The notes under the pieces: generated by a model
The model's database searches: none
Seen by the model: only the letters and a program-made list of their open reading frames with translations
What the model was told of the DNA's origin: nothing
Source: a bacterium
GTDB taxonomy: Bacteria > UBA8248
Direction of reading: 5' to 3'
DNA: 64,000 nucleotides
Assembly (NCBI GenBank): GCA_965219955.1
Contig: OZ244799.1
Coordinates: 2,496,001-2,560,000, forward strand
Shown here: positions 47,998 through 59,062 of the stretch, piece by piece
Position numbering within the stretch: the first letter of the stretch is position 1
How the letters are laid out: each line of letters opens with the position of its first letter
Position numbers and translations under genes: made by a program

Positions 47998-49133
47998 TTG
48001 TCGAATACCTCCTGCGCCGCTGCGAGACCGCATCCTCTTTGGAGTGAATAGCCCAGATCGGCGAGGGTCGATTCCAGCGCGCCGACCGCCGCCAGCACGT
48101 CGGAGGAATCCACGTATCCCAAGTGCCCGATCCGGAAAATCCTGCCGCTCAAGGCGTCCTGGCCACCGGCGATGGTCACCCCGTGCGCGTCCTGCATCCT
48201 CAGGGGGATCGCCTTCCCGTCCACTCCCTCGGGCACGCAGACGGCGGTAACGGCCTCGCTCCTCGAGTCGCGGGGGAATATGTCAAGGCCCAGAGCCTCG
48301 ACGGCCGCCCCCGTCGCACGCGCAAGCCTCGCATGCCGCGCGAAGACGTTCTCCAGCCCCTCCTCGCGCATCATGTCGAGCGCGACAGCCAATCCCGCCA
48401 ACAGGGAAATCGCCGGTGTCCAGGCGGTGGTGTTCTTCATCTGGCTTTTCCGTTCGATCTCGAGGTCGAAGTAATATCGCGGCGAGGTCGATTCCGACGC
48501 GGCGCGCCAGGCCCGCTCGCTCAGCCAGACGAAAGCCAGCCCCGGCGGGAGCATGAGCGCCTTCTGGCTCCCCGTGATTACCACGTCGAGGTCCCATTCC
48601 TCGGTCTTGAGCTCGTACACGCCCAGGGCCGTGATGGCGTCCACCACCACGAGCGTATCGGGCGATCGCTCGCGGACGACCCTCGCGACGGCCCGCACGT
48701 CGTGCTTGGCGCCGGTGGAGGTTTCGCTCGCCTGCATCAGCAGGGCCTTGTGCCCTCCCCTTGCAAGGCGCGCTTCCAGGGCGCTCAAGTCGACCGAGCG
48801 GCCCCATTCCACCTCCAGGACGTCCGCCTCGACCCCGTATGCCGCGCAAAGCTCCGTCCAGCGTTCGCCGAACTTGCCGCCCTCGACGACGAGCGCGGTA
48901 TCGCCCGGAGAGAGCAGGTTCGCCACCGCCGCCTCCATGCCGCCCGTACCCGAAGCGGCGAGGGTGATGACGTCTCCGCTCGTCCGGAAGAGCCATTCCA
49001 GATCGCGCCGCGCTCCTTCGAAGTGCGCTTCGAACTCCCGCGTACGGTGGTGGATCAGGGGCCGCGCCATGGCTTCGAGCACCCGGTGGGGAACCGGCGT
49101 GGGACCGGGGGCCATGAGGTGATGCTTGTTCAT
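47994..49133 (-). CDS. Class V aminotransferase (alanine-glyoxylate type; likely phosphoserine aminotransferase role by context)
   Basis: PGPTPVP, HHRT, SGTGGME, ETSTG, DAIT, GSQKALMLPPG, FRIGHLG. Confidence 0.88.
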   Translation of the reverse strand: MNKHHLMAPGPTPVPHRVLEAMARPLIHHRTREFEAHFEGARRDLEWLFRTSGDVITLAASGTGGMEAAVANLLSPGDTALVVEGGKFGERWTELCAAYGVEADVLEVEWGRSVDLSALEARLARGGHKALLMQASETSTGAKHDVRAVARVVRERSPDTLVVVDAITALGVYELKTEEWDLDVVITGSQKALMLPPGLAFVWLSERAWRAASESTSPRYYFDLEIERKSQMKNTTAWTPAISLLAGLAVALDMMREEGLENVFARHARLARATGAAVEALGLDIFPRDSRSEAVTAVCVPEGVDGKAIPLRMQDAHGVTIAGGQDALSGRIFRIGHLGYVDSSDVLAAVGALESTLADLGYSLQRGCGLAAAQEVFDK

Positions 49134-49300
49134 TTTTCGCTCTTTCCCTGAAGTGAGTCGTTGCGGACGAACACGTGCCCATACGCCTCAAAGGATATAC
49201 CACTCCCCGCCGAACCCCTCAAGCGATATCGTCTGAAAAGCGGGCGGAGGTATGCAAATATGCGTCCCCGCACGGAGAGGGCGAACGCCGCCGTGCTTCC

Positions 49301-49330
49301 TTGCGCGCGCGGGGCGCCCCAGTCTATAAT
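49301..49330 (+). promoter_or_regulatory. Sigma70-like promoter
   Basis: TTGCGC-N18-TATAAT upstream of GGAGG SD and ATG49359. Confidence 0.5.
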
Positions 49331-49358
49331 GACTCGCTCTATACCGGAGGAACGGCGG

Positions 49359-49703
49359 ATGCCCGCATTCGACACGCTCAAGGCGACGAAACTGCTCAAG
49401 GCGTCGGGGTTCGAGGAGACCCAGGCGGAAGCCGTCGTGGCCACGGTGAGAGACGCCGTCTCGGACAACGTGGCCACAAAGGCCGACATGGGCGAACTGC
49501 GCGCTGAAATGGGCGCGTTGCGCGCCGAACTCAAGGCCGACATGGGCGAACTGCGCGCCGAATTCAAGGCCGACATGGGCGAACTGCGCGCCGAACTCAA
49601 GGCCGACATCGCCGAGTTGCGCGCGAGCATGTACCGCATGGTGTTGACCACCTCCCTGGCGGTCATCGGGGCGACCGTCTCCCTCGTCAAGCTGCTCCCA
49701 TAA
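49359..49703 (+). CDS. DUF1640/CCDC90-like coiled-coil membrane-anchored protein with 11-aa repeats
   Basis: FDTLK..K.L..SGF...QAEA, ATKAD, repeated KADMGELRAE(L/F), C-terminal TM. Confidence 0.8.
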   Translation: MPAFDTLKATKLLKASGFEETQAEAVVATVRDAVSDNVATKADMGELRAEMGALRAELKADMGELRAEFKADMGELRAELKADIAELRASMYRMVLTTSLAVIGATVSLVKLLP

Positions 49704-50017
49704 ACAAACGGGGCGATACCTCCGTTATTGACGCTCCATACTTGCACATGTAGATTTTTCGTCGTTATCCGCTACGCCCGTAGGCGGGCATGTATTTCAA
49801 GGCCCTTCACGGATCACCCGTGGGGGGCCTTTTCATTCCGGGCATGAGCCCACAGGGACGACCCTTATGGGTCGTCCTGCCCTCCGTGGTTGTCCTTCGT
49901 CTTCATCGGAACGAAGGCCTCCAACAGGACAGGCACGGAGGCCTGTCCCTACGGGCCGGAGGACGGACAACGCGAGGAGGGCCTGTCCCCGCGTTTCGTT
50001 GCATTCTCTCCACGCAC

Positions 50018-50047
50018 AAAAAAACCGGGGGGCCGAAGCCCCCCGGT
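50018..50047 (-). terminator. Terminator of porin copy 1
   Basis: On the minus strand ACCGGGGGGC-TTCG-GCCCCCCGGT followed by a T run. Confidence 0.9.
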
Positions 50048-50088
50048 CGTCGTCGCGTCAGTTGAGGACGCGAGCGTCCTTCATGTTG

Positions 50089-51318
50089 CTAGAAGATGTG
50101 GCGCAGCGTCCAGCCGACCGCCCAGCCGTCGTCGATCTCACCCTCGTCCACGCCTCTGCCGTAGTCGCCGCGCAGAATAACGGCGCCCACACCGCGAAGC
50201 TCGAGGTTCGAGTGGATCTTCCACTTGAAAGCGGCGTTGAGCTCAGTGCCGAATTCCTTCGCGTCCATCGTGTCCGCCGCGAGGGAAGGTTCGGCTGAAT
50301 TGTAGAGGGATACGCCGCCAGCCAGCGTCAGGGTCTTGCTGACCTTGAAGTCGGCCAGTCCCTCGATCACCGTCGCGCCGTTCAAAGCGCCCAGGTGCAC
50401 GCTTCTGATGCCGTTGCCCAGAGTCGTCCAGCGGCGCGAAGTCATGATGTGGCCGCCGAAGAACCAACCGGAACCGCCTTCCTGAGGCGTCCTGAAGCGG
50501 CCGTCTTCGCCTGCCTTCGTGCCGTCGTTGCCGGAGAGCATCGTGAGGTTGCCGCTGAGCTTCAGTTTGCCCAGGCTCGTGGAAGTCCTCACCAGAACGG
50601 CCCAACCCGAGAGCTCATCGCCGCTCGAGAGGTCACCTTCCTGGATGACGATGGAACCGTTCACGTTGAGGATGCCAACCTTGGTCTTGGCGTGGAGGCC
50701 CAAGAAGCTGTAGTCATAGCCGCCTTCCGCCGCGTCTCTCGAATTGGCCGCCCACGGCGTAACCGTGAGAGTCGGATTCACCTTGATGCCCACGCCGACG
50801 TAGTAGTCCGTCTTGTCATTGTTGTCGGGGCCGGTATCTTCGTTCGCCTTGGTCATGAACGCGCTGAGCGAGAGATTCTTGCTGAGCTTGCCGTAGATCG
50901 CAATGCCCGGCTCACGATGACGGCCGCCGCTGTCGTAGATTTCCTTGTCCGGCGAGAAGTAGTCCGTCCGACCCATGCGCATGCGAAGCGCGCTGCCCGG
51001 AACGGCGAAGTCGATCACCCAGCGGTTGACGCCGACCGTCTGCCGGCCGGGACCGATGGCGAAGCCGCCGTTCGCGCTTACGAACTCGGGTTCCCACACG
51101 GCCGTTACGGCGCCGCTTTTCGCCGTGAAGCGCGGGCGAATGAGCGCGTCCAGGTAATTTCTCTTGTCGTCTGCGTCATCGTCGCCGTCCGCATTGACGT
51201 TTTCGCTGGATCCACGCACCCGGAAGAAGCCGCTGAACTTGAGGTCGGCCGCGTACGAGGGCGCTACAAACGTCGCCAGGAGCGCCAGCGCAAATAGTGC
51301 TAACAGAAGTTTCCTCAT
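50089..51318 (-). CDS. Outer-membrane beta-barrel porin, paralog 1
   Basis: Signal peptide ending SYA; amphipathic strands; C-terminal Phe (WTLRHIF); paralog of 54874-56157. Confidence 0.8.
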   Translation of the reverse strand: MRKLLLALFALALLATFVAPSYAADLKFSGFFRVRGSSENVNADGDDDADDKRNYLDALIRPRFTAKSGAVTAVWEPEFVSANGGFAIGPGRQTVGVNRWVIDFAVPGSALRMRMGRTDYFSPDKEIYDSGGRHREPGIAIYGKLSKNLSLSAFMTKANEDTGPDNNDKTDYYVGVGIKVNPTLTVTPWAANSRDAAEGGYDYSFLGLHAKTKVGILNVNGSIVIQEGDLSSGDELSGWAVLVRTSTSLGKLKLSGNLTMLSGNDGTKAGEDGRFRTPQEGGSGWFFGGHIMTSRRWTTLGNGIRSVHLGALNGATVIEGLADFKVSKTLTLAGGVSLYNSAEPSLAADTMDAKEFGTELNAAFKWKIHSNLELRGVGAVILRGDYGRGVDEGEIDDGWAVGWTLRHIF

Positions 51319-51405
51319 GTGTATTTCTCCTCATCGAGGTTTCACAAAAAAATGTTGCCGTCTTCCTTCACATGTTCTATGTCGATGTTCTATGTCTTGG
51401 ATTTG

Positions 51406-51462
51406 TCAATTGTTTCTGCATCCGTGCTTCGTCGTCTGCAACAGGGCTTCTCGCTCTCGCAT
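51406..51462 (-). CDS. Candidate leader peptide MREREALLQTTKHGCRNN
   Basis: GAGGAGAGGGG SD; conserved frame in the paralogous leader 54747-54806. Confidence 0.45.
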   Translation of the reverse strand: MREREALLQTTKHGCRNN

Positions 51463-51580
51463 CACCCCCTCTCCTCAATGCTGCCCCGCACGTCGACAAG
51501 GTCCTATCGAGCGAACCGATATTTGTCGCTTGAATACTTTCCCATTGAAGAAAACCGTCATTTCATTCCCCATTTCCCAA

Positions 51581-51609
51581 AGAATAGAAAAGATGATCCT
51601 CTTTGTCAA
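51581..51609 (-). promoter_or_regulatory. Sigma70 promoter of porin copy 1
   Basis: TTGACA (51609-51604), N17, TATTCT (51586-51581). Confidence 0.7.
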
Positions 51610-51971
51610 CAAACAATCCCAAGGGAAATCCAAAAAAATCATTTCCTCAGAATTCGAATCTTCCCCTATCCTCCGGAGTGGGGCTAAAGGTTTAACAATC
51701 CTGAAATCAAGCCTTTACGAAAAATTTCGTGTCATAAAAAAACGACGTAAAATCTATCGCCCTGCCCAGGCCTTTGCATCCCGAGAAAAAATTTTTCGCT
51801 CACCGGGCGAAAAGGCGTCCAAAATAGGCCTTACGCCCCCTGAAAATCCGACCTGTATCCGTTCATCCGGCCTGCGATTCGGGCCGTCCGAGAAATCTTA
51901 TTCCCTGATCGTAGAAAAAAGAAGTGGCTTTTCCCGGCGGAGAACGGGCCGGAATCCTGCAGCCGACTTTC

Positions 51972-53144
51972 TCAGAATATATCTTCCGCGATACTCCCCG
52001 CAACCCGCTCCGCCGCCTCGTGCGCGGAATTGCGCGCCAGGTGCGCGTAACGCGCCGTGGTCTGCACGTGGGCGTGGCCAAGGAGCTTCGCGATGACGGG
52101 GAGCCCTTCTCCCAGCGCGAGCGCTCTCGAAGCGTAGGAATGGCGAAGGTCGTGGAGCCGCACGTCATCGAGACCCGCCCGCGCGCGGACGGGCCGCCAG
52201 ACGTGATCGAGGCTGCTCAGGCGCGCGCCCGGCTTCCTGCCGGAAATGACCCAGGGATTCCCCTCAACCCGGGGGAGGGCCGCCAGGAGCGCGACCGCCT
52301 GCGGCGGAAGCGGGACGACCCGCGCGCCCGTCTTGGAATCCGGCAGCCTCAGCTCACCCTCGTCCAGCGCCACGTCCTCCCAGCGGAGGGTGAGTATTTC
52401 GGACTTACGGCACCCGGTCAGCATCAGCAGGCGTATGGCGGCCAGGGCGGACGCAGGCGCCCCGCCCCGGTTCTCCATTTCTTCCAGAACGGATCCCAGG
52501 CGCGTAAACTCCTCATCCGTCAGGAACCGCTCCCTCTTGCGTTCGGGGTATTTCACGATCAGGCGGCAGGGGTTGCACCCCTCGGGCGCCAGGCCCCAGC
52601 TCTCGGCCAGCCTGTACATCGCATAGAGGATCCGGACGACCATGTTCGCAACAGCAGGCGTCTCGCAAAGGCCCTGGTGCAGTTCCGCCACCTGCGCCCG
52701 CTCCACCGCCATGATCGGCAGTTCGCCCAAAGCGGGCACGATGTGCTTCCGCACCACCGCCCTGGTCTTCGCGACGGTGCTCGGCTTACAGCGCACCGAG
52801 ACGTATTCGGTGAGATACCGCTCGGCGAGCGCCGCCACCCTGGGCCCGCCCGCGGGCTTCAGCCGCTTCGGGATTGCCTCCTCGCCCGCCTTGATACGGG
52901 CGATGATGAGCGCCGCCCTTTGGCGCGCCTGCTCGGCGCCGATCACGCCGTGGCGGCCCACCGCCACCCGCCTGGGCCCTCCCGGCCCCCGCGCCTGGGC
53001 GACGTAGACTTTTGAGCCGGTGGGATAGACCCTGACGCCGAAGCCTGTGAGATCCCGGTCCCAGAACACCGTATCCTTTTGAACCACAAGCTTCCCGACC
53101 GCCCGGTTCGAGAGCGTTTTCATAACGGGCTTCGCCGTTTTCAC
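51972..53144 (-). CDS. Tyrosine integrase (P4-like, N-terminal arm-binding domain), copy B
   Basis: FWDRDLTGFGVRV; TGCRKSE, DSKTG, HDLRHSYAS, LLGH, TTARY; GTGA overlap with the upstream stop. Confidence 0.92.
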   Translation of the reverse strand: MKTAKPVMKTLSNRAVGKLVVQKDTVFWDRDLTGFGVRVYPTGSKVYVAQARGPGGPRRVAVGRHGVIGAEQARQRAALIIARIKAGEEAIPKRLKPAGGPRVAALAERYLTEYVSVRCKPSTVAKTRAVVRKHIVPALGELPIMAVERAQVAELHQGLCETPAVANMVVRILYAMYRLAESWGLAPEGCNPCRLIVKYPERKRERFLTDEEFTRLGSVLEEMENRGGAPASALAAIRLLMLTGCRKSEILTLRWEDVALDEGELRLPDSKTGARVVPLPPQAVALLAALPRVEGNPWVISGRKPGARLSSLDHVWRPVRARAGLDDVRLHDLRHSYASRALALGEGLPVIAKLLGHAHVQTTARYAHLARNSAHEAAERVAGSIAEDIF

Positions 53145-54319
53145 TCGAGGTTCCCGTTCGTCAGGTGGGCGCCTATGCTCCCCCCCACCCGGGTGGCCGC
53201 CTCCTTCTCGGCCTTGAGCATCAGGTGCGTGTAGCGCGCCGTCGTCGTTACCGTCGCGTGTCCCAGGAGCTTGCCAATCGTGTAGAGGCTCTCGCCGAGC
53301 GCCAGAGCCCTTGACGCATAGGAGTGTCTCAGGTCGTGGAGCCGCAGGTCGGAGAGTCCCGCCCGCTCCCGGACAGGCCGCCAGTAGTAGTGAAGATCCG
53401 TAAGGTTCTTTCCCGGCTTCTGGCCGATGACCACCCATGGGTTGTCCGGTTGCCGGGGCAGCTTGTCGAGAAGCCCCCGCACGGGATTCGTCAGCGGAAC
53501 CATGCGGGGACCCGTCTTGGCGTCCCTGAGCCTGAGATCACCCGCCGTGCGGTCCACGTCGTCCCATTTGAGGCTCAGTATCTCGCTCCTCCGGCACCCG
53601 GTCAGCATGAGCAGCCTGATCGCCGTGATCGCAGGCGGCCAGATGGAGCCCGCCGCCTCGGCGTCTTTGAGCGACCGGCCCAGGCGACGGTATTCCTCGG
53701 ATGTCAGGAACCGCTCGCGCGGGCGCGTCCTGTAGAGCGTTAGTCTTCTGCACGGGTTCCGCCCGGGCGGGACCAGGCCCCACGCCTCGGCCAGGTTGAA
53801 CATCCTCGAGAGGAGATGGATCGACGTGTTGACCCGGCTCGGCGTATGGCGGAGGCGGTGCTGAAACGCGGTGAGTTCCGCCCGTCCGATCCGGGCCAGC
53901 GCCATCCCGCCCAGGACCGGCAGGACGTGTTTGTCCAGTATGGTGCGGTATTCCACGACGGTGCGCGGCTTCAGGTGCCTTTCCACGTAAACGCGCATGA
54001 AGCGCTCGGCAACCGCCGCCAGGGTGGGTTCCTCCACGGGCGGCTCAAGCCCGGGGTATTCGCCCCGCTTGATGCGGTCGATGACGAGGGCGGCCTGCTT
54101 TCTTGCCTCCCCGGTCGACAACGCCCCGTGCCGGCCTAAAGTAACGCGTTTTATCCCCCCGGGCCCGCGGGATTGCACCACGTAGGATTTCCTGCCCGCA
54201 GAGTGGACGCGCACCCCGAAGCCGGCCAGGTCCCGATCCCAGAAGAGGGTGTCCCGGTTCTTGGTTTTGAGCGCATCGACAGCGCGCTTGGTGAGCCTGA
54301 ACTCACTCCTTCTGGGCAT
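53141..54319 (-). CDS. Tyrosine integrase (P4-like, N-terminal arm-binding domain), copy A
   Basis: FWDRDLAGFGVRV; TGCRRSE, DAKTG, HDLRHSYAS, LLGH, TTARY; start MPRRSEF. Confidence 0.92.
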   Translation of the reverse strand: MPRRSEFRLTKRAVDALKTKNRDTLFWDRDLAGFGVRVHSAGRKSYVVQSRGPGGIKRVTLGRHGALSTGEARKQAALVIDRIKRGEYPGLEPPVEEPTLAAVAERFMRVYVERHLKPRTVVEYRTILDKHVLPVLGGMALARIGRAELTAFQHRLRHTPSRVNTSIHLLSRMFNLAEAWGLVPPGRNPCRRLTLYRTRPRERFLTSEEYRRLGRSLKDAEAAGSIWPPAITAIRLLMLTGCRRSEILSLKWDDVDRTAGDLRLRDAKTGPRMVPLTNPVRGLLDKLPRQPDNPWVVIGQKPGKNLTDLHYYWRPVRERAGLSDLRLHDLRHSYASRALALGESLYTIGKLLGHATVTTTARYTHLMLKAEKEAATRVGGSIGAHLTNGNLE

Positions 54320-54346
54320 GGCCCCCCTCGCTGGGCATGGCCCCTT

Positions 54347-54500
54347 CGCTCGACATGTCATCAAAACGCATATCAGCGACATCAGTCGAGAGCGCGTTTA
54401 CGCATGAACAGGCACGCTCTCTCACGCTCGACATGTCATCAAAACGCATATCAGCGGCATCGAATGTGAGCGTATTCAAGCACAAACACGGCAGGCGCGC
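54347..54500. repeat. Tandem 78-bp unit upstream of the integrases (37-bp near-identical core)
   Basis: CGCTCGACATGTCATCAAAACGCATATCAGCG(A/G)CATC at 54347-54383 and 54425-54461; the following segments are also alignable. Confidence 0.85.
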
Positions 54501-54746
54501 AAGAGGCGACGATAAGGAAAATATCGAATTAAAGCAAATAATAACAAATCTTTACATTGCATGAGTACGCTCAGTCGCAACATCCCCGGAGTGATCAGTT
54601 CCTTTCAGTATTACATCTATTCTTTGAGAGATAAAGCACGGAACGGCTGTTTTTTTCAGATGGGGAATTGTCTGCATAAGCGGCAAATACCGGTTCGCAA
54701 GATGGAACCTTGTCGGCGTACGGGGCGGTATGGAGGAGAGGGGGTG

Positions 54747-54806
54747 ATGCGGGAGCGGGAAGTCCTGTCGCAGACGACGAAGTACGGATGCAGCGACACC
54801 GATTAA
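54747..54806 (+). CDS. Candidate leader peptide MREREVLSQTTKYGCSDTD
   Basis: GGAGGAGAGGGG SD; paralog of 51406-51462. Confidence 0.45.
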   Translation: MREREVLSQTTKYGCSDTD

Positions 54807-54873
54807 ACCAGACACAGAACACGAAGGAAGACGGCAACATTTTTTAGTGAAACCTCAATGAGGAGAAATACAC

Positions 54874-56157
54874 ATGAGGAAACTTCTGTTAGCACTATTC
54901 GCGATGGCGCTCGTCGTGGCGTTCACCGCGCCCTCGTACGCGGCCGACCTCAAGTACAGCGGCTTCTTCCGGGTGCGTGGATCCAGCGAAAACGTCGAAG
55001 GTGACGACGGAGACAAGAAAAATTATCTGGACGCGCTCATCCGACCGCGCTTCACCGCGAAGAGCGGCGCCGTCACGGCCACATATGAACTCGACTTCTC
55101 GTCGTCGTATACTGGAAAACTTGACGATGATAACGAATTAGCGACTAATACGCATGCTGGCGCGAACGGCGGATTCGGCACCGCTGGTCGGCACAATGTG
55201 GGTACGAACCGCTGGGTGATCGACTTCGCCGTTCCGGGCAGCGCGCTCCGCGTTCGCATGGGCCGGACGGACTACTTCTCGCCGGACAAGGAAATCTTCG
55301 ACAGCGGCGGTAAGCACCGTTTGCCGGGCATTGCGCTTTACGGCAAGTTGAGCAAGAACATGTCGCTCAGCGCGTTCATGACCAAATCGAAAGAAGACGC
55401 GGGTGGCAGCAACGATGACAAGACGGATTACTACGTCGGCATGGGCATCAAGGTGAACCCGACGCTCACGCTCACGCCGTGGGCGGCCAACACCAGAGAC
55501 GCTGCGGCCGGCGGCTATGACTACAGCTTCCTCGGTTTCCACGCCAAGACCAAGGTGGGCATCCTGAACGTAAACGGTTCTATCGTCATCCAAGAGGGTG
55601 ACCTCTCAGTCAAGGACGGAGTCCAAAAGGAACTCTCGGGTTGGGCCGTACTGCTCAGGACTTCCACCAGCCTGGGCAAACTGAAGCTGAGCGGAAACCT
55701 CACCATGCTCTCCGGCGATGACGGCTCCAAGGCCGGCGAGGACGGCAGCTTCCAGACGCCTCGGGGAGGTAGTTCCGGCTGGTTCGTCGGCGGCCACATC
55801 ATGAGTTCGCGCCGCTGGACGACTCTTGGCAACAGCATCAGAGACAGAGAACTGAAGAAAATGAACGGCGCGGTCGTGATCGAGGGACTGGCCGACTTCA
55901 AGGTCAGCAAAACTCTGACGCTGGCTGGCGGCGTATCCCTTTATAATTCCGCCGAACCTTCCCTCGCGCCGGACACGATGGACGCGAAGGAATTCGGCAC
56001 CGAGCTCAACGCCGCTTTCAAGTGGAAGATCCACTCGAACCTCGAGCTTCGCGGTGTGGGCGCCGTTATTCTGCGCGGCGACTACGGCAGAAAAGTTGAC
56101 GAGGGTGAGATCGACGACGGCTGGGCGGTCGGCTGGACGCTGCGCCACATCTTCTAG
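54874..56157 (+). CDS. Outer-membrane beta-barrel porin, paralog 2
   Basis: Signal peptide; C-terminal RHIF; differs from copy 1 mainly in polar loop-like segments. Confidence 0.8.
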   Translation: MRKLLLALFAMALVVAFTAPSYAADLKYSGFFRVRGSSENVEGDDGDKKNYLDALIRPRFTAKSGAVTATYELDFSSSYTGKLDDDNELATNTHAGANGGFGTAGRHNVGTNRWVIDFAVPGSALRVRMGRTDYFSPDKEIFDSGGKHRLPGIALYGKLSKNMSLSAFMTKSKEDAGGSNDDKTDYYVGMGIKVNPTLTLTPWAANTRDAAAGGYDYSFLGFHAKTKVGILNVNGSIVIQEGDLSVKDGVQKELSGWAVLLRTSTSLGKLKLSGNLTMLSGDDGSKAGEDGSFQTPRGGSSGWFVGGHIMSSRRWTTLGNSIRDRELKKMNGAVVIEGLADFKVSKTLTLAGGVSLYNSAEPSLAPDTMDAKEFGTELNAAFKWKIHSNLELRGVGAVILRGDYGRKVDEGEIDDGWAVGWTLRHIF

Positions 56158-56198
56158 CAGCATGATGGACGCTCGCGTCCTCACCTGACGCGACGACG

Positions 56199-56228
56199 AC
56201 CGGGGGGCTTCGGCCCCCCGGTTTTTTT
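56199..56228 (+). terminator. Terminator of porin copy 2
   Basis: ACCGGGGGGC-TTCG-GCCCCCCGGT-TTTTTT, same as copy 1. Confidence 0.9.
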
Positions 56229-56336
56229 GTGCGTGGATGTATGCGCGGCGTCCTCGCGACTTTTTTCTATTATCGCTCCCCCCTTAGGATCATTCTCTCT
56301 TCGACCGGAAATGAATGTTTGTGCAGGGGGCGCAAT

Positions 56337-56527
56337 GGGGCTGTTGAAAAAGCCTGATGCGGGATCGGCGGCAAGGAGGTTCACGCGGCGCAGACGTGAT
56401 GGTTTTGTAGGGACAGGCCTCCGTGCCTGTCCTGCTCTTCGTGGTTGTCCTTCGTCAGGACAGGCACGGAGGCCTGTCCCTACGGCGAACAATCTCGAAG
56501 GTCGGACAGGACTTTTTCAACAACCCC
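56337..56527. mobile_element. MITE with GGGGCTGTTGAAAAAG / CTTTTTCAACAACCCC ends carrying a GTAG REP doublet
   Basis: TIRs as at 17262-17533; interior GTAGGGACAGGCCTCCGTGCCTGTCCT...AGGACAGGCACGGAGGCCTGTCCCTAC. Confidence 0.75.
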
Positions 56528-56923
56528 GCCCTCTCGAATCGACACGCATTTCCCCGCAATTGCCGTCATTCCCAAATCCGCGGACTGCGCTATCGTGCGC
56601 GCGACGCGGGGAAGGGGTTTTTCCCCGGCGGATTGAGACGCACGGAGAGGAAGCTTTCGCATGGGATGCAGTGATGGAACGGGGAAGAATTACGAAAATG
56701 GATTCGGGAACGGCGCGGAAATAAAAATAATGATATTTTCTGTAAAATTCGATAAATTCAGGGGGTTTTTCGATAAATTCCTGAAATTCACTTCCCGCTT
56801 AACGGTTTGTAATACAAAGGGTTATCATATAAATATGAGCGTCGTGCACTCAGATAAGGCGGTGAAAAAAGTTTTCGGCGCCCCCGCATTTGCCCGCGCC
56901 GGGAGCCGGCGGCGCAAAGAACG

Positions 56924-58840
56924 CTATTCCCTGATCTTGTAGAAGAAAAGCTGGCTCTTCGCGCCGACCAACGGTCTCGAACTCGTCGTCGCCACCACGA
57001 GATCGTCGTAGCCGTCGTTGTCCGCGTCGCCGAAGGTGAAATCCACGATCCCCCGGCCCAGTTTTCTCGAGCGCCAGGTCTCGGTCAAACCGCTGCCGTC
57101 CCAGAGCAGGCTCGCGATCTGCCCGCTCGAAACGCCCAGGCCCGGCGCAATGGAGGCAACGTATTCGTTGCGGATCACCAGAACCTCATCCACCCCGTCC
57201 CTGTCGACGTCTTCAACCAGCACGCGCGAGCGTATGGGGAGATCCGGTGTATGAACCCTGTCACCGGTGTTTTCCGTATTGGCCAGGGAGAAGAATCTAT
57301 GGACGGGCGCGCCGTAGGTTTCAGAGCTCGAGTAGATATCCTGGCCGCTCCTCGAGAACACCCTCAGCCTGTCGTCCTTCCCGACCTCGATGACTTCCTG
57401 CGAGCCGTCCCTGTTGAGGTCCCACAAGCCGAAGCCCAGTATCGTCAAATCCGGCGGAAGCGCATAAGGGGCGGCGGGCGCGAGTTTCCCCCCCGACCAG
57501 CGATAGCTGCGGATGGGGCCGTCGAAAGCGCTCTCGATCCCTTCACTCTGCCCCAGAAGCAGATAGGCTTCCGAGCCAGGAATCTTCTTGCCCTTCTCGG
57601 GCCGCCGCACCCGTATCAGGCGATAAAAAGTCCTGTCGTTCCGGACGAGGGGCGTGAACTTCCCGCCCTTGAACTGCAGGATCATCGAGAACAACTCGTT
57701 CGAGCGATAAGAGGCGAGGTAGAACTCGGGCGCGCCGTCTCCGTTCATGTCGGCGACGTCGAGCCAGCGGAAGTCGTTCGCCGCCCCGCCGTCGAAGCGG
57801 GCGACCTCGCGCATCCGGTTCTCCTCGAAGCGGTTGACGATGACCTCGGTCGGCGTGATGAGAACGACTTCGTTTTTCCCGTCCCCGTCCACGTCCGCCA
57901 CGGACAGCCCCCGGAATACGGCCTTGTCGAACGAGTAGCTTTTCTGGCCGCCTCCTCTGTTTGGTACGCCCTCGCGGGCGAGCACGAAATTCTCGTTCGC
58001 GGGTCCTGCGCGCGTCTCGCCGCCGCCTCGCTTGAGTTCCTGCACCGTGGGCGGGCCCTGTTCGAAGGGCAGTTCATCCGCAATGGCCACGGCCTTGAAG
58101 AGTTCTTCCTTCGTGGTGAGGGACAAAAGGCGGGTGGAGAGAATCTTCTTCCCCCGGATTTCGCGGAGCTCGTTCTCGAGCGCCATGTCGCTCCGCACCT
58201 GGTTTCGCAGGCGAATCGGATTCTCTTTTTCAAGAATTTCATCGGTGGCGACACCCGTCTCGAGGAGCCATACCTGGAGCCTGTCCACGTCGTATACGTC
58301 GAAGCGCCCGCTCCTCAGGAGCTGGCGTCCGAGTTCCCTCGTGAGCGTCTCCATGCTGACGGCTTCTTTCGTCTGATTGACGAAAGGCAGTATCGCCAGG
58401 CGAATTTTCGAGGCGGACATGCGCACCGTGTCCTTGACGCGCGGCGAGAGTTGGCCGCCCGGCGCAAGGCGGACAAGACGCGCGATGGAGAATTTCTCCC
58501 GCACCTCGACGACCTCGATCTCGCCTACCTCCTCTTCCAGCTTGCCGAGAACGACGCCCGTCGTCGGGTGGCGAAACGGCGCGCCCTCGCGGTAGACGCT
58601 CAACTTGACGCCCTTGACCACCTCATCCTTCTCGCCGAGGCTCAAGTAGAGATCCGCCCCTCTGACGGCGACCACCGCGCCGCGCAGATTCGGGAATCTC
58701 TGGTGCAGCTTTTCGCTGATGAGACCGAGGGCCTTGCGGTAGTCGTTCTCCTGGGCGTGGGTCGAGCCGCCGGATGCGCAGAGGACAATCATGAAGGCCA
58801 GCAGGAAGGCCGGCGCCTTCTTAAGGAGGTGAGAGAACAT
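56924..58840 (-). CDS. Secreted FG-GAP/VCBS-repeat protein
   Basis: Signal peptide; DVDGDGKNE, DMNGDGAPE, DLNRDGSQE, DVDRDGVDE, DADNDGYDD repeats. Confidence 0.85.
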   Translation of the reverse strand: MFSHLLKKAPAFLLAFMIVLCASGGSTHAQENDYRKALGLISEKLHQRFPNLRGAVVAVRGADLYLSLGEKDEVVKGVKLSVYREGAPFRHPTTGVVLGKLEEEVGEIEVVEVREKFSIARLVRLAPGGQLSPRVKDTVRMSASKIRLAILPFVNQTKEAVSMETLTRELGRQLLRSGRFDVYDVDRLQVWLLETGVATDEILEKENPIRLRNQVRSDMALENELREIRGKKILSTRLLSLTTKEELFKAVAIADELPFEQGPPTVQELKRGGGETRAGPANENFVLAREGVPNRGGGQKSYSFDKAVFRGLSVADVDGDGKNEVVLITPTEVIVNRFEENRMREVARFDGGAANDFRWLDVADMNGDGAPEFYLASYRSNELFSMILQFKGGKFTPLVRNDRTFYRLIRVRRPEKGKKIPGSEAYLLLGQSEGIESAFDGPIRSYRWSGGKLAPAAPYALPPDLTILGFGLWDLNRDGSQEVIEVGKDDRLRVFSRSGQDIYSSSETYGAPVHRFFSLANTENTGDRVHTPDLPIRSRVLVEDVDRDGVDEVLVIRNEYVASIAPGLGVSSGQIASLLWDGSGLTETWRSRKLGRGIVDFTFGDADNDGYDDLVVATTSSRPLVGAKSQLFFYKIRE

Positions 58841-59062
58841 GAAAAACCCCATATCAGTAACGTGTTTTAGAGACTCCGGTCGAGCCGCCAGCGCTCTGAA
58901 GCAGAGCATGGCCCCGGATAATCAATCAGCCGTTGTATGATATCATGATTTCGAAGACAGAAAGCCCCAAACACCCTCAAATATACCGCGTAAGAAGCAG
59001 AAAGCAAATTTATTCAGGCCGTTCGGAAAGCCGGTCCGTCCAGGCGCAGGCTGCGTTTCGCC

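Follow-up and report, generated by a model that had tools for sequence, protein, structure and literature searches.

A small integrative islet created a pair of opposed porin genes in the genome (4.28 Mb) of a sponge-associated bacterium, and we propose, with a confidence slightly above even, that a homology-driven flip of the segment between the two genes would swap a promoter from one to the other. The pair lies in the window, that is, the whole stretch of 64,000 nucleotides that was analysed; its features are collected in Table 1. The arrival of the islet placed a second porin, porB, opposite the resident one, porA, with a single complete promoter whose -35/UP half is within the 3-kb centre. 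On the proposal, a crossover between the two arms, within the leader or the 5' part of the coding sequences, would flip the centre. The other porin would then receive the -35/UP half, and only one of the surface variants would be expressed strongly at any moment. If the crossover fell instead in the near-identical 3' ends, or in flanking REP-like elements, whole gene bodies would shift. The flip would be driven by homology, of the RecA type, and the integrases would serve the mobility of the islet. Some flipping, at a low rate, would be expected inside a population as well, and in the present orientation porB would be silent or weakly transcribed.

Table 1. Features of the porin locus, in positions of the window
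Feature	Position	Strand	Basis or remark
porA intrinsic terminator	50023..50048	-	same sequence as porB terminator; arm begins at 50009
porA, 409 aa: outer-membrane beta-barrel porin, resident copy (positional ortholog)	50089..51318	-	ORF, domain search, structure model
porA 5' leader, ~262 nt	51319..51580	-	conserved, 19/19 copies compared
Sole complete sigma-70-type promoter: TTGACA (51609-51604), 17 nt, TATTCT (51586-51581)	51581..51609	-	promoter scan; kept in relatives
Ancestral porin-upstream DNA (UP region; old FG-GAP terminator 51813-51793)	51587..51888	-	contiguous with porA in single-porin relatives
Displaced, decayed copy of last ~45 nt of FG-GAP gene; left islet junction (attL-like)	51899..51945	+	repeat search
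int1, tyrosine integrase	51972..53144	-	likely start GTG 53144 (overlaps int2 stop) or ATG 53123
int2, tyrosine integrase	53141..54319	-	likely start ATG 54319 (MPRRSEF), as in other pairs
int2 promoter and 5' UTR region ('I-type' upstream)	54320..54617	.	abuts porB TATTCT box, gives no -35
porB -10 box (TATTCT 54618-54623) and 5' leader	54618..54873	+	alignment, promoter scan
porB, islet-borne porin paralog, 427 aa	54874..56157	+	ORF, alignment
porB intrinsic terminator	56198..56223	+	arm end at 56237
3' end of intact FG-GAP gene; right islet junction (attR-like), direct repeat of 51899-51945	56925..56970	+	repeat search

An earlier note on this DNA had described the two divergent porin genes as an inverted repeat of about 1.6 kb, and both ORF calls and alignment confirm it. 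The repeat consists of seven collinear blocks, I1 to I7 (50009-51588 versus 56237-54616): identity is 95% over the 376 nucleotides of the 3' end, 72% in the innermost 43 nucleotides, and 85-90% in the other parts. A global alignment carries the homology of porA and porB from the terminator up to AGAATA/TATTCT, which upholds the claim that it stops at a common TATTCT box, and the two terminators, GACCGGGGGGCTTCGGCCCCCCGGTT followed by a run of T, are identical, as had also been claimed. The stretch of 42 identical nucleotides put forward as a candidate crossover region does exist (51293-51334), and it is the longest exact match near the start, but longer exact matches, of 90, 62 and 53 nucleotides, are found at the 3' ends. 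Because the leader arms in this genome are only about 75% identical, with gaps, and share no longer exact match near the start, they would make a poor RecA substrate. The whole genome holds just these two copies of the porin; the porB stretch 55108-55900 is uncovered in runs X1 and X2.

The promoter scan recognises one complete promoter of the sigma-70 type, in front of porA, matching the consensus at 10 of 12 positions; over positions 49700-57000 it found no other strong site of this type, and nothing upstream of porB. It had been observed that TTGACA stands 17 nucleotides upstream of the box in porA only, and this holds: porB reads TCAGTT at the -35 position. The motif TTGACA-N17-TATTCT has a single occurrence across the entire genome. 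When the copies in relatives are compared, TTGACA-17/18-TATTCT is kept in 12 of 12 native-type upstream regions and in none of the 7 integrase-side copies, whose upstream regions are poorly conserved just 5' of the box. It is precisely at TATTCTTT that the two kinds of region become homologous again, in each of the 19 copies, and 18 of these have CTATTCTTT at the homology edge. The repeats are gene-length, and the conserved (C)TATTCTTT at their inner edge, present in all 19 copies, is also the -10 box: the inner edge of the arm falls between the -35 and -10 hexamers, and it does so in every genome that bears the pair. These comparisons support the reading of the TTGACA/TATTCT pair of porA as a conserved promoter.

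The proteins encoded by porA and porB are about 80% identical, and they differ mainly in long loops, as the earlier note had seen from the insertion SSSYTGKLDDDNELATNTHAG, which occurs in porB only. The insertions and variable segments fall on long, low-confidence loops of the structure model (81-95, 160-166 and 279-295), while the leader, the signal peptide, the barrel core, the C-terminus and the terminator are common to both genes. The N-terminus reads MRKLLLALFALALLATFVAPSYA/AD (signal peptide) and the C-terminus ends in ...RHIF, with an aromatic end residue. No Pfam porin family gives a match above its curated cut-off (Porin_4 reaches 21.3 bits versus 27, SlpA_C 21.5-23.1 versus 35). The best Foldseek matches of the model, whose pLDDT is 73, are AlgE, OpdK/OprD (OprD/Occ) and the MOMP of C. 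jejuni, with E-values from 1e-13 to 1e-9, probability 1.00 and TM-scores of 0.54-0.64. As modelled, both proteins are 18-strand beta-barrel porins, encoded by genes that face outward. Both genes are under purifying selection, with dN/dS values, computed against G011, of 0.23 for porA and 0.31 for porB.

The origin of the pair can be read from the borders of the central segment. Its junctions, and the corresponding loci of relatives, show a 5-kb integrative islet, made of int1, int2 and porB, that inserted into the 3' end of an FG-GAP gene. The FG-GAP gene is intact (ORF 56924-58909, minus strand), and the remnant of its end at the other junction is also found in G011 and G016. In five relatives, G002, G022, G017, G018 and G008, the porin and the FG-GAP gene have no islet between them: the site is empty. 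The first four are collinear with the window from 50007 up to a point in the range 51660-51888 and resume at 56924, and it is with their lone porin that porA is collinear. The locus thus bears the marks of an integrative islet: the target is directly repeated at its two ends, an integrase lies at one end, and relatives have the site empty. The insertion point is immediately upstream of the promoter of the resident porin, and the porin cassette of the islet retained its -10 box, leader, coding sequence and terminator, without a -35. The islet is also present in L063 and L107, and in G014, where the native locus has a single porin and its site is likewise empty, it is found elsewhere, 21 kb away, with the same architecture. 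The centre had been said to hold only two tyrosine integrases and repeats: the two integrases are there, intact, but so are about 300 bp of ancestral porin-upstream DNA and the FG-GAP remnant.

Each integrase has Arm-DNA-bind_3, SAM-like and catalytic domains, all above curated cut-offs: PF00589, PF13356 and PF14659 score 83, 33.5 and 31 bits for int1, and 74, 42 and 32 bits for int2. Both contain the motifs GCR(K/R)SE, KTG, HDLRH, LGH and ARY(A/T)H, in which we take the catalytic R, K, H-x-x-R, H and Y to reside. This IntSXT/P4-like domain set, together with the catalytic motifs, agrees with their earlier assignment to the P4 type. The two are tandem paralogs, 54% identical; a longer ORF of int1, extending to 53438, is probably unused, and the corresponding MKQPVMKTLS is where the paralog in pair P1 begins. 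The region upstream of int2, which contains a 64-nt element twice (54347-54410 and 54425-54488) and an AT-rich stretch, is conserved in the 6 pairs that were aligned. The genome has seven such tandem pairs, with homology confined to the pair itself, about 2.35 kb, and only the one at the porin locus has long inverted repeats on both sides. These observations weaken the idea that the integrases are present in order to invert DNA, since the pair belongs to an islet that duplicated the FG-GAP 3' end, has empty sites in relatives and sits elsewhere in G014, and since only one pair in seven has such repeats around it; a simpler explanation of the integrases is that they form the integration module of the 5-kb islet. 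Relatives with the porin pair and without the integrases, an arrangement that the earlier note would have counted against a switch, number zero among six fully resolved pairs.

A crossover in the leader or the 5' coding sequence was predicted to move the -35 to the other porin, and the predicted product exists. The sister species G013 and G020 have the same central segment in opposite orientations, with spacers 84-96% identical, and in G020 the full promoter is on the other, divergent porin. The upstream region of the proximal porin of G020 matches that of the distal porin of G013 (86-88%), and its coding body matches the proximal body of G013 (85-97%). Structurally, then, inversion alters which gene joins the promoter: the -35 is in the centre only, and G020 and G013 have the two states. 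In G012, a native-type body with its own 3' flank occupies the distal position. The leaders of the two copies have been homogenised by recombination in two genomes: in G013 they are identical at 266 of 266 nucleotides. For G014, with 21 kb between the copies and 60% identity between the proteins, the figure is 260 of 263.

It is possible, if rather doubtful, that there is no switch: the islet would merely have added a paralog, and the inversions between species would be rare neutral accidents of a 1.6-kb inverted repeat. The porB gene would then be transcribed from the shared -10 box, helped by an upstream region that is non-canonical or needs an activator, or its transcription would begin at another place upstream of int2. 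One orientation is indeed dominant: that of the window occurs in six genomes (G000, G011, G013, G016, G012, and G005, for its proximal half only), the other in G020, and two further records agree with the window: the half-locus L107 and, in run X1, a contig of 4259 nt. This imbalance of six versus one would be expected both if inversion is rare and if a switch is biased. The Logan contigs of four runs break at the shared stretches (51305, 54887) and show no mixture of orientations; of their joints, none of the 15 listed (there are 27 further) changes strand. By its att-like direct repeats, and by the empty sites in relatives, the islet is a usual kind of integrative element, the purifying selection on porB fits a gene expressed in place, and the TATTCTTT box is retained in 7 of 7 integrase-side copies. 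However, a conserved -35-like hexamer is found in none of these seven regions, and the scan sees no promoter-like site before porB; in both lineages of the islet, the arm edge separates the -35 from the -10 precisely; and the full promoter appears to drive the divergent porin in two of the seven islet-bearing genomes, G020 and G012.

A programmed inversion seems unlikely to us. Here one or both integrases would invert at two inverted sites containing CTATTCTTT and overlapping the -10 box, thus splitting the promoter, and the int2-side arm, with its AT-rich stretch and repeated 64-nt element, would be accessory DNA. The islet would be a portable phase-variation module, an improbable outcome: a mobile element would bring a porin cassette trimmed exactly to the -10 box and insert it, inverted, next to the resident porin. 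Any host acquiring it would at once be able to alternate between two surface porins, for instance as a defence against phages whose receptor is the porin. The homology edge does fall at the same base in both islet lineages, whose integrases are 68-76% identical, and in the displaced islet of G014; but a fixed edge is equally expected from a common islet ancestor, because homologous crossovers within the arms never shift it. The exact identity of the G013 leaders begins at the edge, at -255, but the G013/G020 crossover can be placed only between the edge and about 200 nucleotides into the coding sequence. The conserved int2-upstream region stops about 50 nucleotides short of the edge, where the pair module ends in other copies (about 340 nucleotides upstream of int2 in P2 and P3, with 299 at the porin locus). 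Both integrases have the full set of catalytic motifs, and, according to a table in the available part of PMC9881135, a paper on gene-altering inversions whose main text does not contain the word 'porin', genes for integrases and tyrosine recombinases are over-represented next to inversions predicted to be programmed. On the other side, the box TATTCTTTGA agrees with the islet att core TATTCCCTGA at 8 of 10 positions at best, which is estimated to be within chance, this likeness is not kept in other native copies, and the six other tandem pairs have no flanking long inverted repeats.

A homology-driven flip that moves half a promoter between two porins, the reading that we prefer, has parallels. 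By analogy, the nearest known kinds are the sap locus of Campylobacter fetus and the SusC/SusD shufflons of Bacteroides. In sap, a single promoter is carried on an invertible segment between opposed homologous S-layer genes with conserved 5' regions; inversion changes the homologue that is expressed, and nested or larger inversions move whole genes. The earlier note had not recognised the architecture as described, a view that has to be abandoned: one promoter that inverts between opposed genes for homologous surface proteins is the sap design. The porin locus resembles it in the single promoter -35 in the 3-kb centre, in the conserved leader and 5' coding sequence, and in the arrangements of G020 and G012. 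However, sap moves a whole promoter, and the porin locus only its -35/UP half; and instead of S-layer proteins we have beta-barrel porins, with a second copy brought by a mobile islet and integrases in the segment, whereas we know of none in that of sap. The available part of PMC1950947 mentions the sap inversion. The SusC/SusD shufflons of Bacteroides fragilis use the tyrosine recombinase Tsr0667, as reported in the available part of PMC4747536; there too, DNA inversion in which a tyrosine recombinase takes part diversifies outer membrane proteins. In those systems, however, the inverted repeats are short and specific, and a master invertase is dedicated to them, often from a distant locus. 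The porin locus has whole-gene repeats of 1.6 kb, and its recombinases are arm-binding islet integrases, in seven copies.

The inverted repeats of fimS are 9 bp long. In the portion of PMC9993118 available, the gene of a tyrosine recombinase (FimB/FimE) adjoins the promoter-bearing invertible segment, which has 314 bp and turns one operon ON or OFF, whereas the porin segment has 3 kb, lies between gene-length repeats and would swap genes. For mba/UU172 of Ureaplasma parvum, the accessible text of PMC3047005 describes inversion at inverted repeats that switches paralogous surface proteins and makes chimeras; the differences are the short inverted repeats, the wall-less bacterium and the lipoproteins. 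Finally, the islet itself can be set beside the islands of the IntSXT subgroup (P4-like), which is defined by an N-terminal DUF4102 (Arm-DNA-bind_3) domain and whose members, in the part of PMC8138268 available, insert beside or into the end of a conserved gene and duplicate the target end. The porin islet shares the N-terminal domain and the insertion at a target end with duplication; unlike those islands, it has two tandem paralogous integrases, is very small (5 kb), and carries as its only cargo a promoter-truncated copy of the gene that adjoins its target.

The genome, a single 4.28-Mb contig, holds this porin in two copies only: porA, the resident gene, and porB, a paralog carried on a 5-kb islet. 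Both face outward from a centre of about 3 kb that contains two tandem tyrosine integrases, int1 and int2. The inverted repeat, 50009-51588 versus 56237-54616, consists of seven collinear blocks. Identity along it is 95% across the 3' 376 nt, stays at 85-90% over most of both genes and their leaders, and falls to 72% in the final 43 nt. In a global alignment, the homology runs from identical terminators at one end to TATTCT, the -10 region that we call the box, at the other, which confirms the inverted porin repeat with its edge at the box described in the earlier note. The coordinates of the features are collected in the table below.

Features of the porin locus, of the two relatives discussed, and of the other integrase pairs
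Feature	Position	Strand	Remarks
porA	50089-51318	minus	409 aa
porB	54874-56157	plus	427 aa
Porin leaders, about 260 nt	51319-51580; 54624-54873		
Decayed FG-GAP 3' copy	51899-51945		adjoins int1; also in G011, G016
Functional FG-GAP 3' end	56925 onward		
64-nt element	54347-54410; 54425-54488		doubled in int2 5' UTR
REP-like element, 28 nt	49925-49952; 56407-56434; 56456-56483		palindromic
Coiled-coil protein gene	49161-49703	plus	180 aa
33-nt tandem repeats	49449-49624		within coiled-coil gene
Insertion in G014 islet	L039:6357-9732		3.4 kb
Third integrase of G016	L035:12457-12987		at contig end
Other tandem integrase pairs, G000 C1	1849119-1851484; 2561354-2563713; 3691652-3694005; 2629125-2631468; 2734877-2737222; 1869167-1871387		second pair 1.4 kb past window end

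Matches of the two proteins to porin and SlpA-barrel Pfam families all lie below threshold. An AlphaFold model based on 19 homologues gives a large beta-barrel (pLDDT 73), whose closest structural matches are AlgE, the OprD/Occ channels and the C. jejuni MOMP (probability 1.00, TM 0.54-0.64). We call the proteins outer-membrane porins because of this model and its fold matches, and because they have a signal peptide and end in Phe. Insertions and variable segments map to long, low-confidence loops of the model (81-95, 160-166 and 279-295), and its short turns show no variation. The dN/dS values computed against G011, 0.23 for porA and 0.31 for porB, indicate that each gene is under purifying selection, so that porB would be in use at least sometimes, either where it stands or after a flip.

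Just beyond both porin terminators lies the REP-like element, CAGGACAGGCACGGAGGCCTGTCCCTAC, present in 138 exact copies over both strands of the genome (218 for its 20-nt core), and at which contig depth is 10 to 50 times the surrounding level. An Rfam scan of 49000-57500 yields sub-threshold, miRNA-like matches to this palindrome, weak Xoo2 matches at the porin terminators, and no family for the leader. The neighbouring coiled-coil protein has a CCDC90-like Pfam match, and its tandem repeats encode ADMGELRAE(L/F)K units; it is just 78% identical in G011, a genome otherwise near-identical, and was not detected beside the porin in other relatives.

A promoter scan of 49700-57000 finds one strong sigma-70-type site, TTGACA-17-TATTCT before porA (10/12 positions match), and none preceding porB; the genome contains this motif once. 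For comparison across the genus, 19 upstream regions, drawn from 12 genomes, were aligned. Twelve of them, the P-type, have TTGACA, a spacing of 17-18 nt, and TATTCT: they comprise all single-porin genomes and exactly one copy of each pair. The other seven, the I-type, adjoin int2, and consist of unrelated sequence with no conserved -35. Homology between the two types resumes exactly at TATTCTTT, and CTATTCTTT is found in 18 of the 19 regions, with G022 as the exception. The proposal of a single complete promoter, on the porA side only, thus holds both in the scan and in the alignment (12/12 P-type versus 0/7 I-type regions with a conserved -35).

Conservation of the leader throughout the genus is strong, with GAGAGGGGGTGATGCG and GAAGGAAGACGGCAACATTTTTT as examples; it may serve mRNA stability or be an sRNA target. 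A consensus fold of 16 leaders, leaving aside the duplicate copies of G013 and G014 and that of G022, whose box differs, has a covariation term of -0.49 kcal/mol and a double change in 3 of 44 pairs; no leader structure is therefore supported.

The origin of the pair can be read from synteny in 13 of the 23 genomes of the genus. Five of them (G002, G022, G008, G017 and G018) have one porin, and no integrase, between an aminotransferase gene and the FG-GAP gene; six (G000, G011, G013, G016, G020 and G012) have a porin, two integrases and a second porin, and among these the integrase orientation and the end occupied by each porin allele vary. G014 has a single porin at the native locus, with another porin and an integrase pair at a distance of 21 kb, and in G005 the proximal half of the locus is visible until the contig end. 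Relatives with a porin pair and no integrases, which the earlier note held to count against a switch, were found in none of the six resolved pairs.

Collinearity between the single-porin genomes and the window starts at 50007, breaks off between 51660 and 51888, and resumes at 56924: porA is therefore ancestral, as are its leader and promoter and some 300 bp further upstream. The inserted block spans approximately 51946-56923, and the last 45 nt or so of the FG-GAP gene are duplicated as a direct repeat. Read from the sequence, such a repeat with its inserted block is what an integrative islet leaves when it enters a conserved gene at the 3' end. PMC8138268 describes the same target for DUF4102-bearing integrases of the IntSXT subgroup, and the islet resembles their islands in this respect.

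The module formed by int1, int2, the int2-upstream region, the box, the leader and a porin is found at three more places: the other locus of G014, L063, and L107, the one locus returned by a scan of metagenomes with porA. The porin native to G008 and the distal allele of G013 share 88% identity. In the G014 islet, the int2-upstream region is split by an insertion that contains ORFs of 784 and 304 aa and has about 7 nt repeated on either side, probably an insertion sequence. Just past the distal porin of G016 starts a third integrase (65% identity to int2), which may belong to a second islet inserted in tandem.

The islets of G013 and G020 belong to one lineage, their spacers being 84-96% identical, and the centres lie in opposite orientation between the same flanks. 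The proximal porin of G020 has an upstream region that matches that of the distal porin of G013 (86-88%), and a CDS body that matches the proximal body of G013 (85-97%). The crossover must then lie somewhere from the box to roughly 200 nt inside the CDS. Since the centre is inverted, the P-type promoter of G020 stands before its divergent distal porin, 48% identical to porA. The product predicted for a crossover in the arms, a promoter moved to the other porin, thus exists between species. In G012, the centre has the orientation of the window, a divergent allele lies under the promoter, and a native-type body is distal, accompanied by 82 nt of the 3' flank that belongs to it; two inversions, one outer and one inner, would produce this layout, as could other routes. 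In all, six genomes are oriented as the window and one is opposite; one contig of run X1 and the half-locus L107 share the window's orientation.

The leaders of a pair are 266/266 nt identical in G013, with an exact tract from -255 (the box) to +27, and 260/263 nt identical in G014, where 21 kb separate the copies and the proteins are 60% identical; the leaders of G000 are 75% identical to each other.

We somewhat favour an account in which the islet would bring a porin cassette with a truncated promoter beside the resident porin, inversion between the arms would let the cassette gain the resident promoter, and the integrases would serve islet mobility. Inversion has taken place on the evolutionary scale, and within populations we infer it. 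A static pair of paralogs with no switch is a rather less probable reading: porB could then be in use where it stands, and the G020 arrangement would be a rare, neutral accident of the long inverted repeat. The longest exact arm matches in G000 are at the 3' ends (90, 62 and 53 nt), with just 42 nt around the start codon, so that promoter-swapping homologous crossovers should be rarer here than silent ones.

The stretch occurs in 20 sequencing runs, all taken as Logan assembled contigs and labelled sponge, coral or marine metagenome, with 0.88-0.93 of the words present in X16-X19; we compared the contigs of X16, X18, X1 and X2 with the window. They end at shared stretches (51305 and 54887), and none of the 15 joints listed, of 42, changes strand, which in assembled contigs bears neither way on mixed orientation. 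X1 and X2 have contigs of kilobase length that match the window at about 98-99% identity, and cover the locus at that level except for the porB body, 55108-55900, which is without cover at a likeness of at least 90%; their close strains may have a different distal allele, contig gaps alone being no evidence.

Both integrases are intact. The genome has seven int2-int1 tandem pairs, that of the locus included, whose homology is confined to the pair of about 2.35 kb plus the int2 promoter and 5' UTR. Only the locus pair lies between long inverted repeats, so the presence of integrases needs no invertase role: islet integration accounts for it fully. The invertible switch proposed in the earlier note is thus partly supported: the repeat and the promoter stand, inversion is seen between species, and the idea of the integrases as resident invertases is weakened. 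That they catalyse a switch at the -10 box is improbable. The box and the islet's att core match at 8/10 positions (TATTCTTTGA versus TATTCCCTGA), a likeness with a chance probability estimated on the order of 0.1-0.2, not kept in other native copies and rejected as evidence.

Several of the six other pairs have an in-frame stop or a frameshift, and the pairs P2 and P3 have about 2.9 kb of cargo in common downstream of int1. Alphaproteobacterial MAGs of similar sources carry multiple copies of single int1-like integrases (about 60% identity). The core of the 64-nt element (TTTGATGCCGC..GTATGCGTTTTGATTAC) occurs as a single copy before int2 in 5/5 other aligned pairs, downstream of a TTG...-17-T..AAT promoter-like site, and could be where integrase expression is regulated.

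Porins abound on the cell surface and often serve as phage receptors. If the favoured account is true, uncultured sponge-associated bacteria vary their main porin in two ways, by a mobile cassette and by promoter sharing. The 5-kb islet would carry alternative alleles from species to species, as the G013 distal allele and the G008 native porin illustrate, and its cassette would rely on a resident promoter acquired through inversion, so that a single small element would combine horizontal transfer with phase variation. It would also offer a specific example on which surface variation can be tested in symbionts of a lineage not yet growable. Genome scans call for caution, as an integrase that lies between inverted repeats may have no invertase role: here islet integration fully explains its presence.

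Among titles and the first lines of abstracts, we found no description of inversion switching between porin paralogues, sponge symbionts included. In the sap system of C. fetus, one promoter lies on an invertible segment between opposed homologues, and the porin locus has the same layout. A survey of gene-altering inversions (PMC9881135), whose main text does not contain the word 'porin', lists SusC/RagA proteins, with integrase genes enriched as neighbours. The mba/UU172 switch of Ureaplasma (PMC3047005) also resembles the locus. SusC/SusD outer membrane proteins are varied by tyrosine-recombinase inversion, according to PMC4747536, and the likeness extends to the porins: outer membrane proteins, with variation that would be inversion-based here too.
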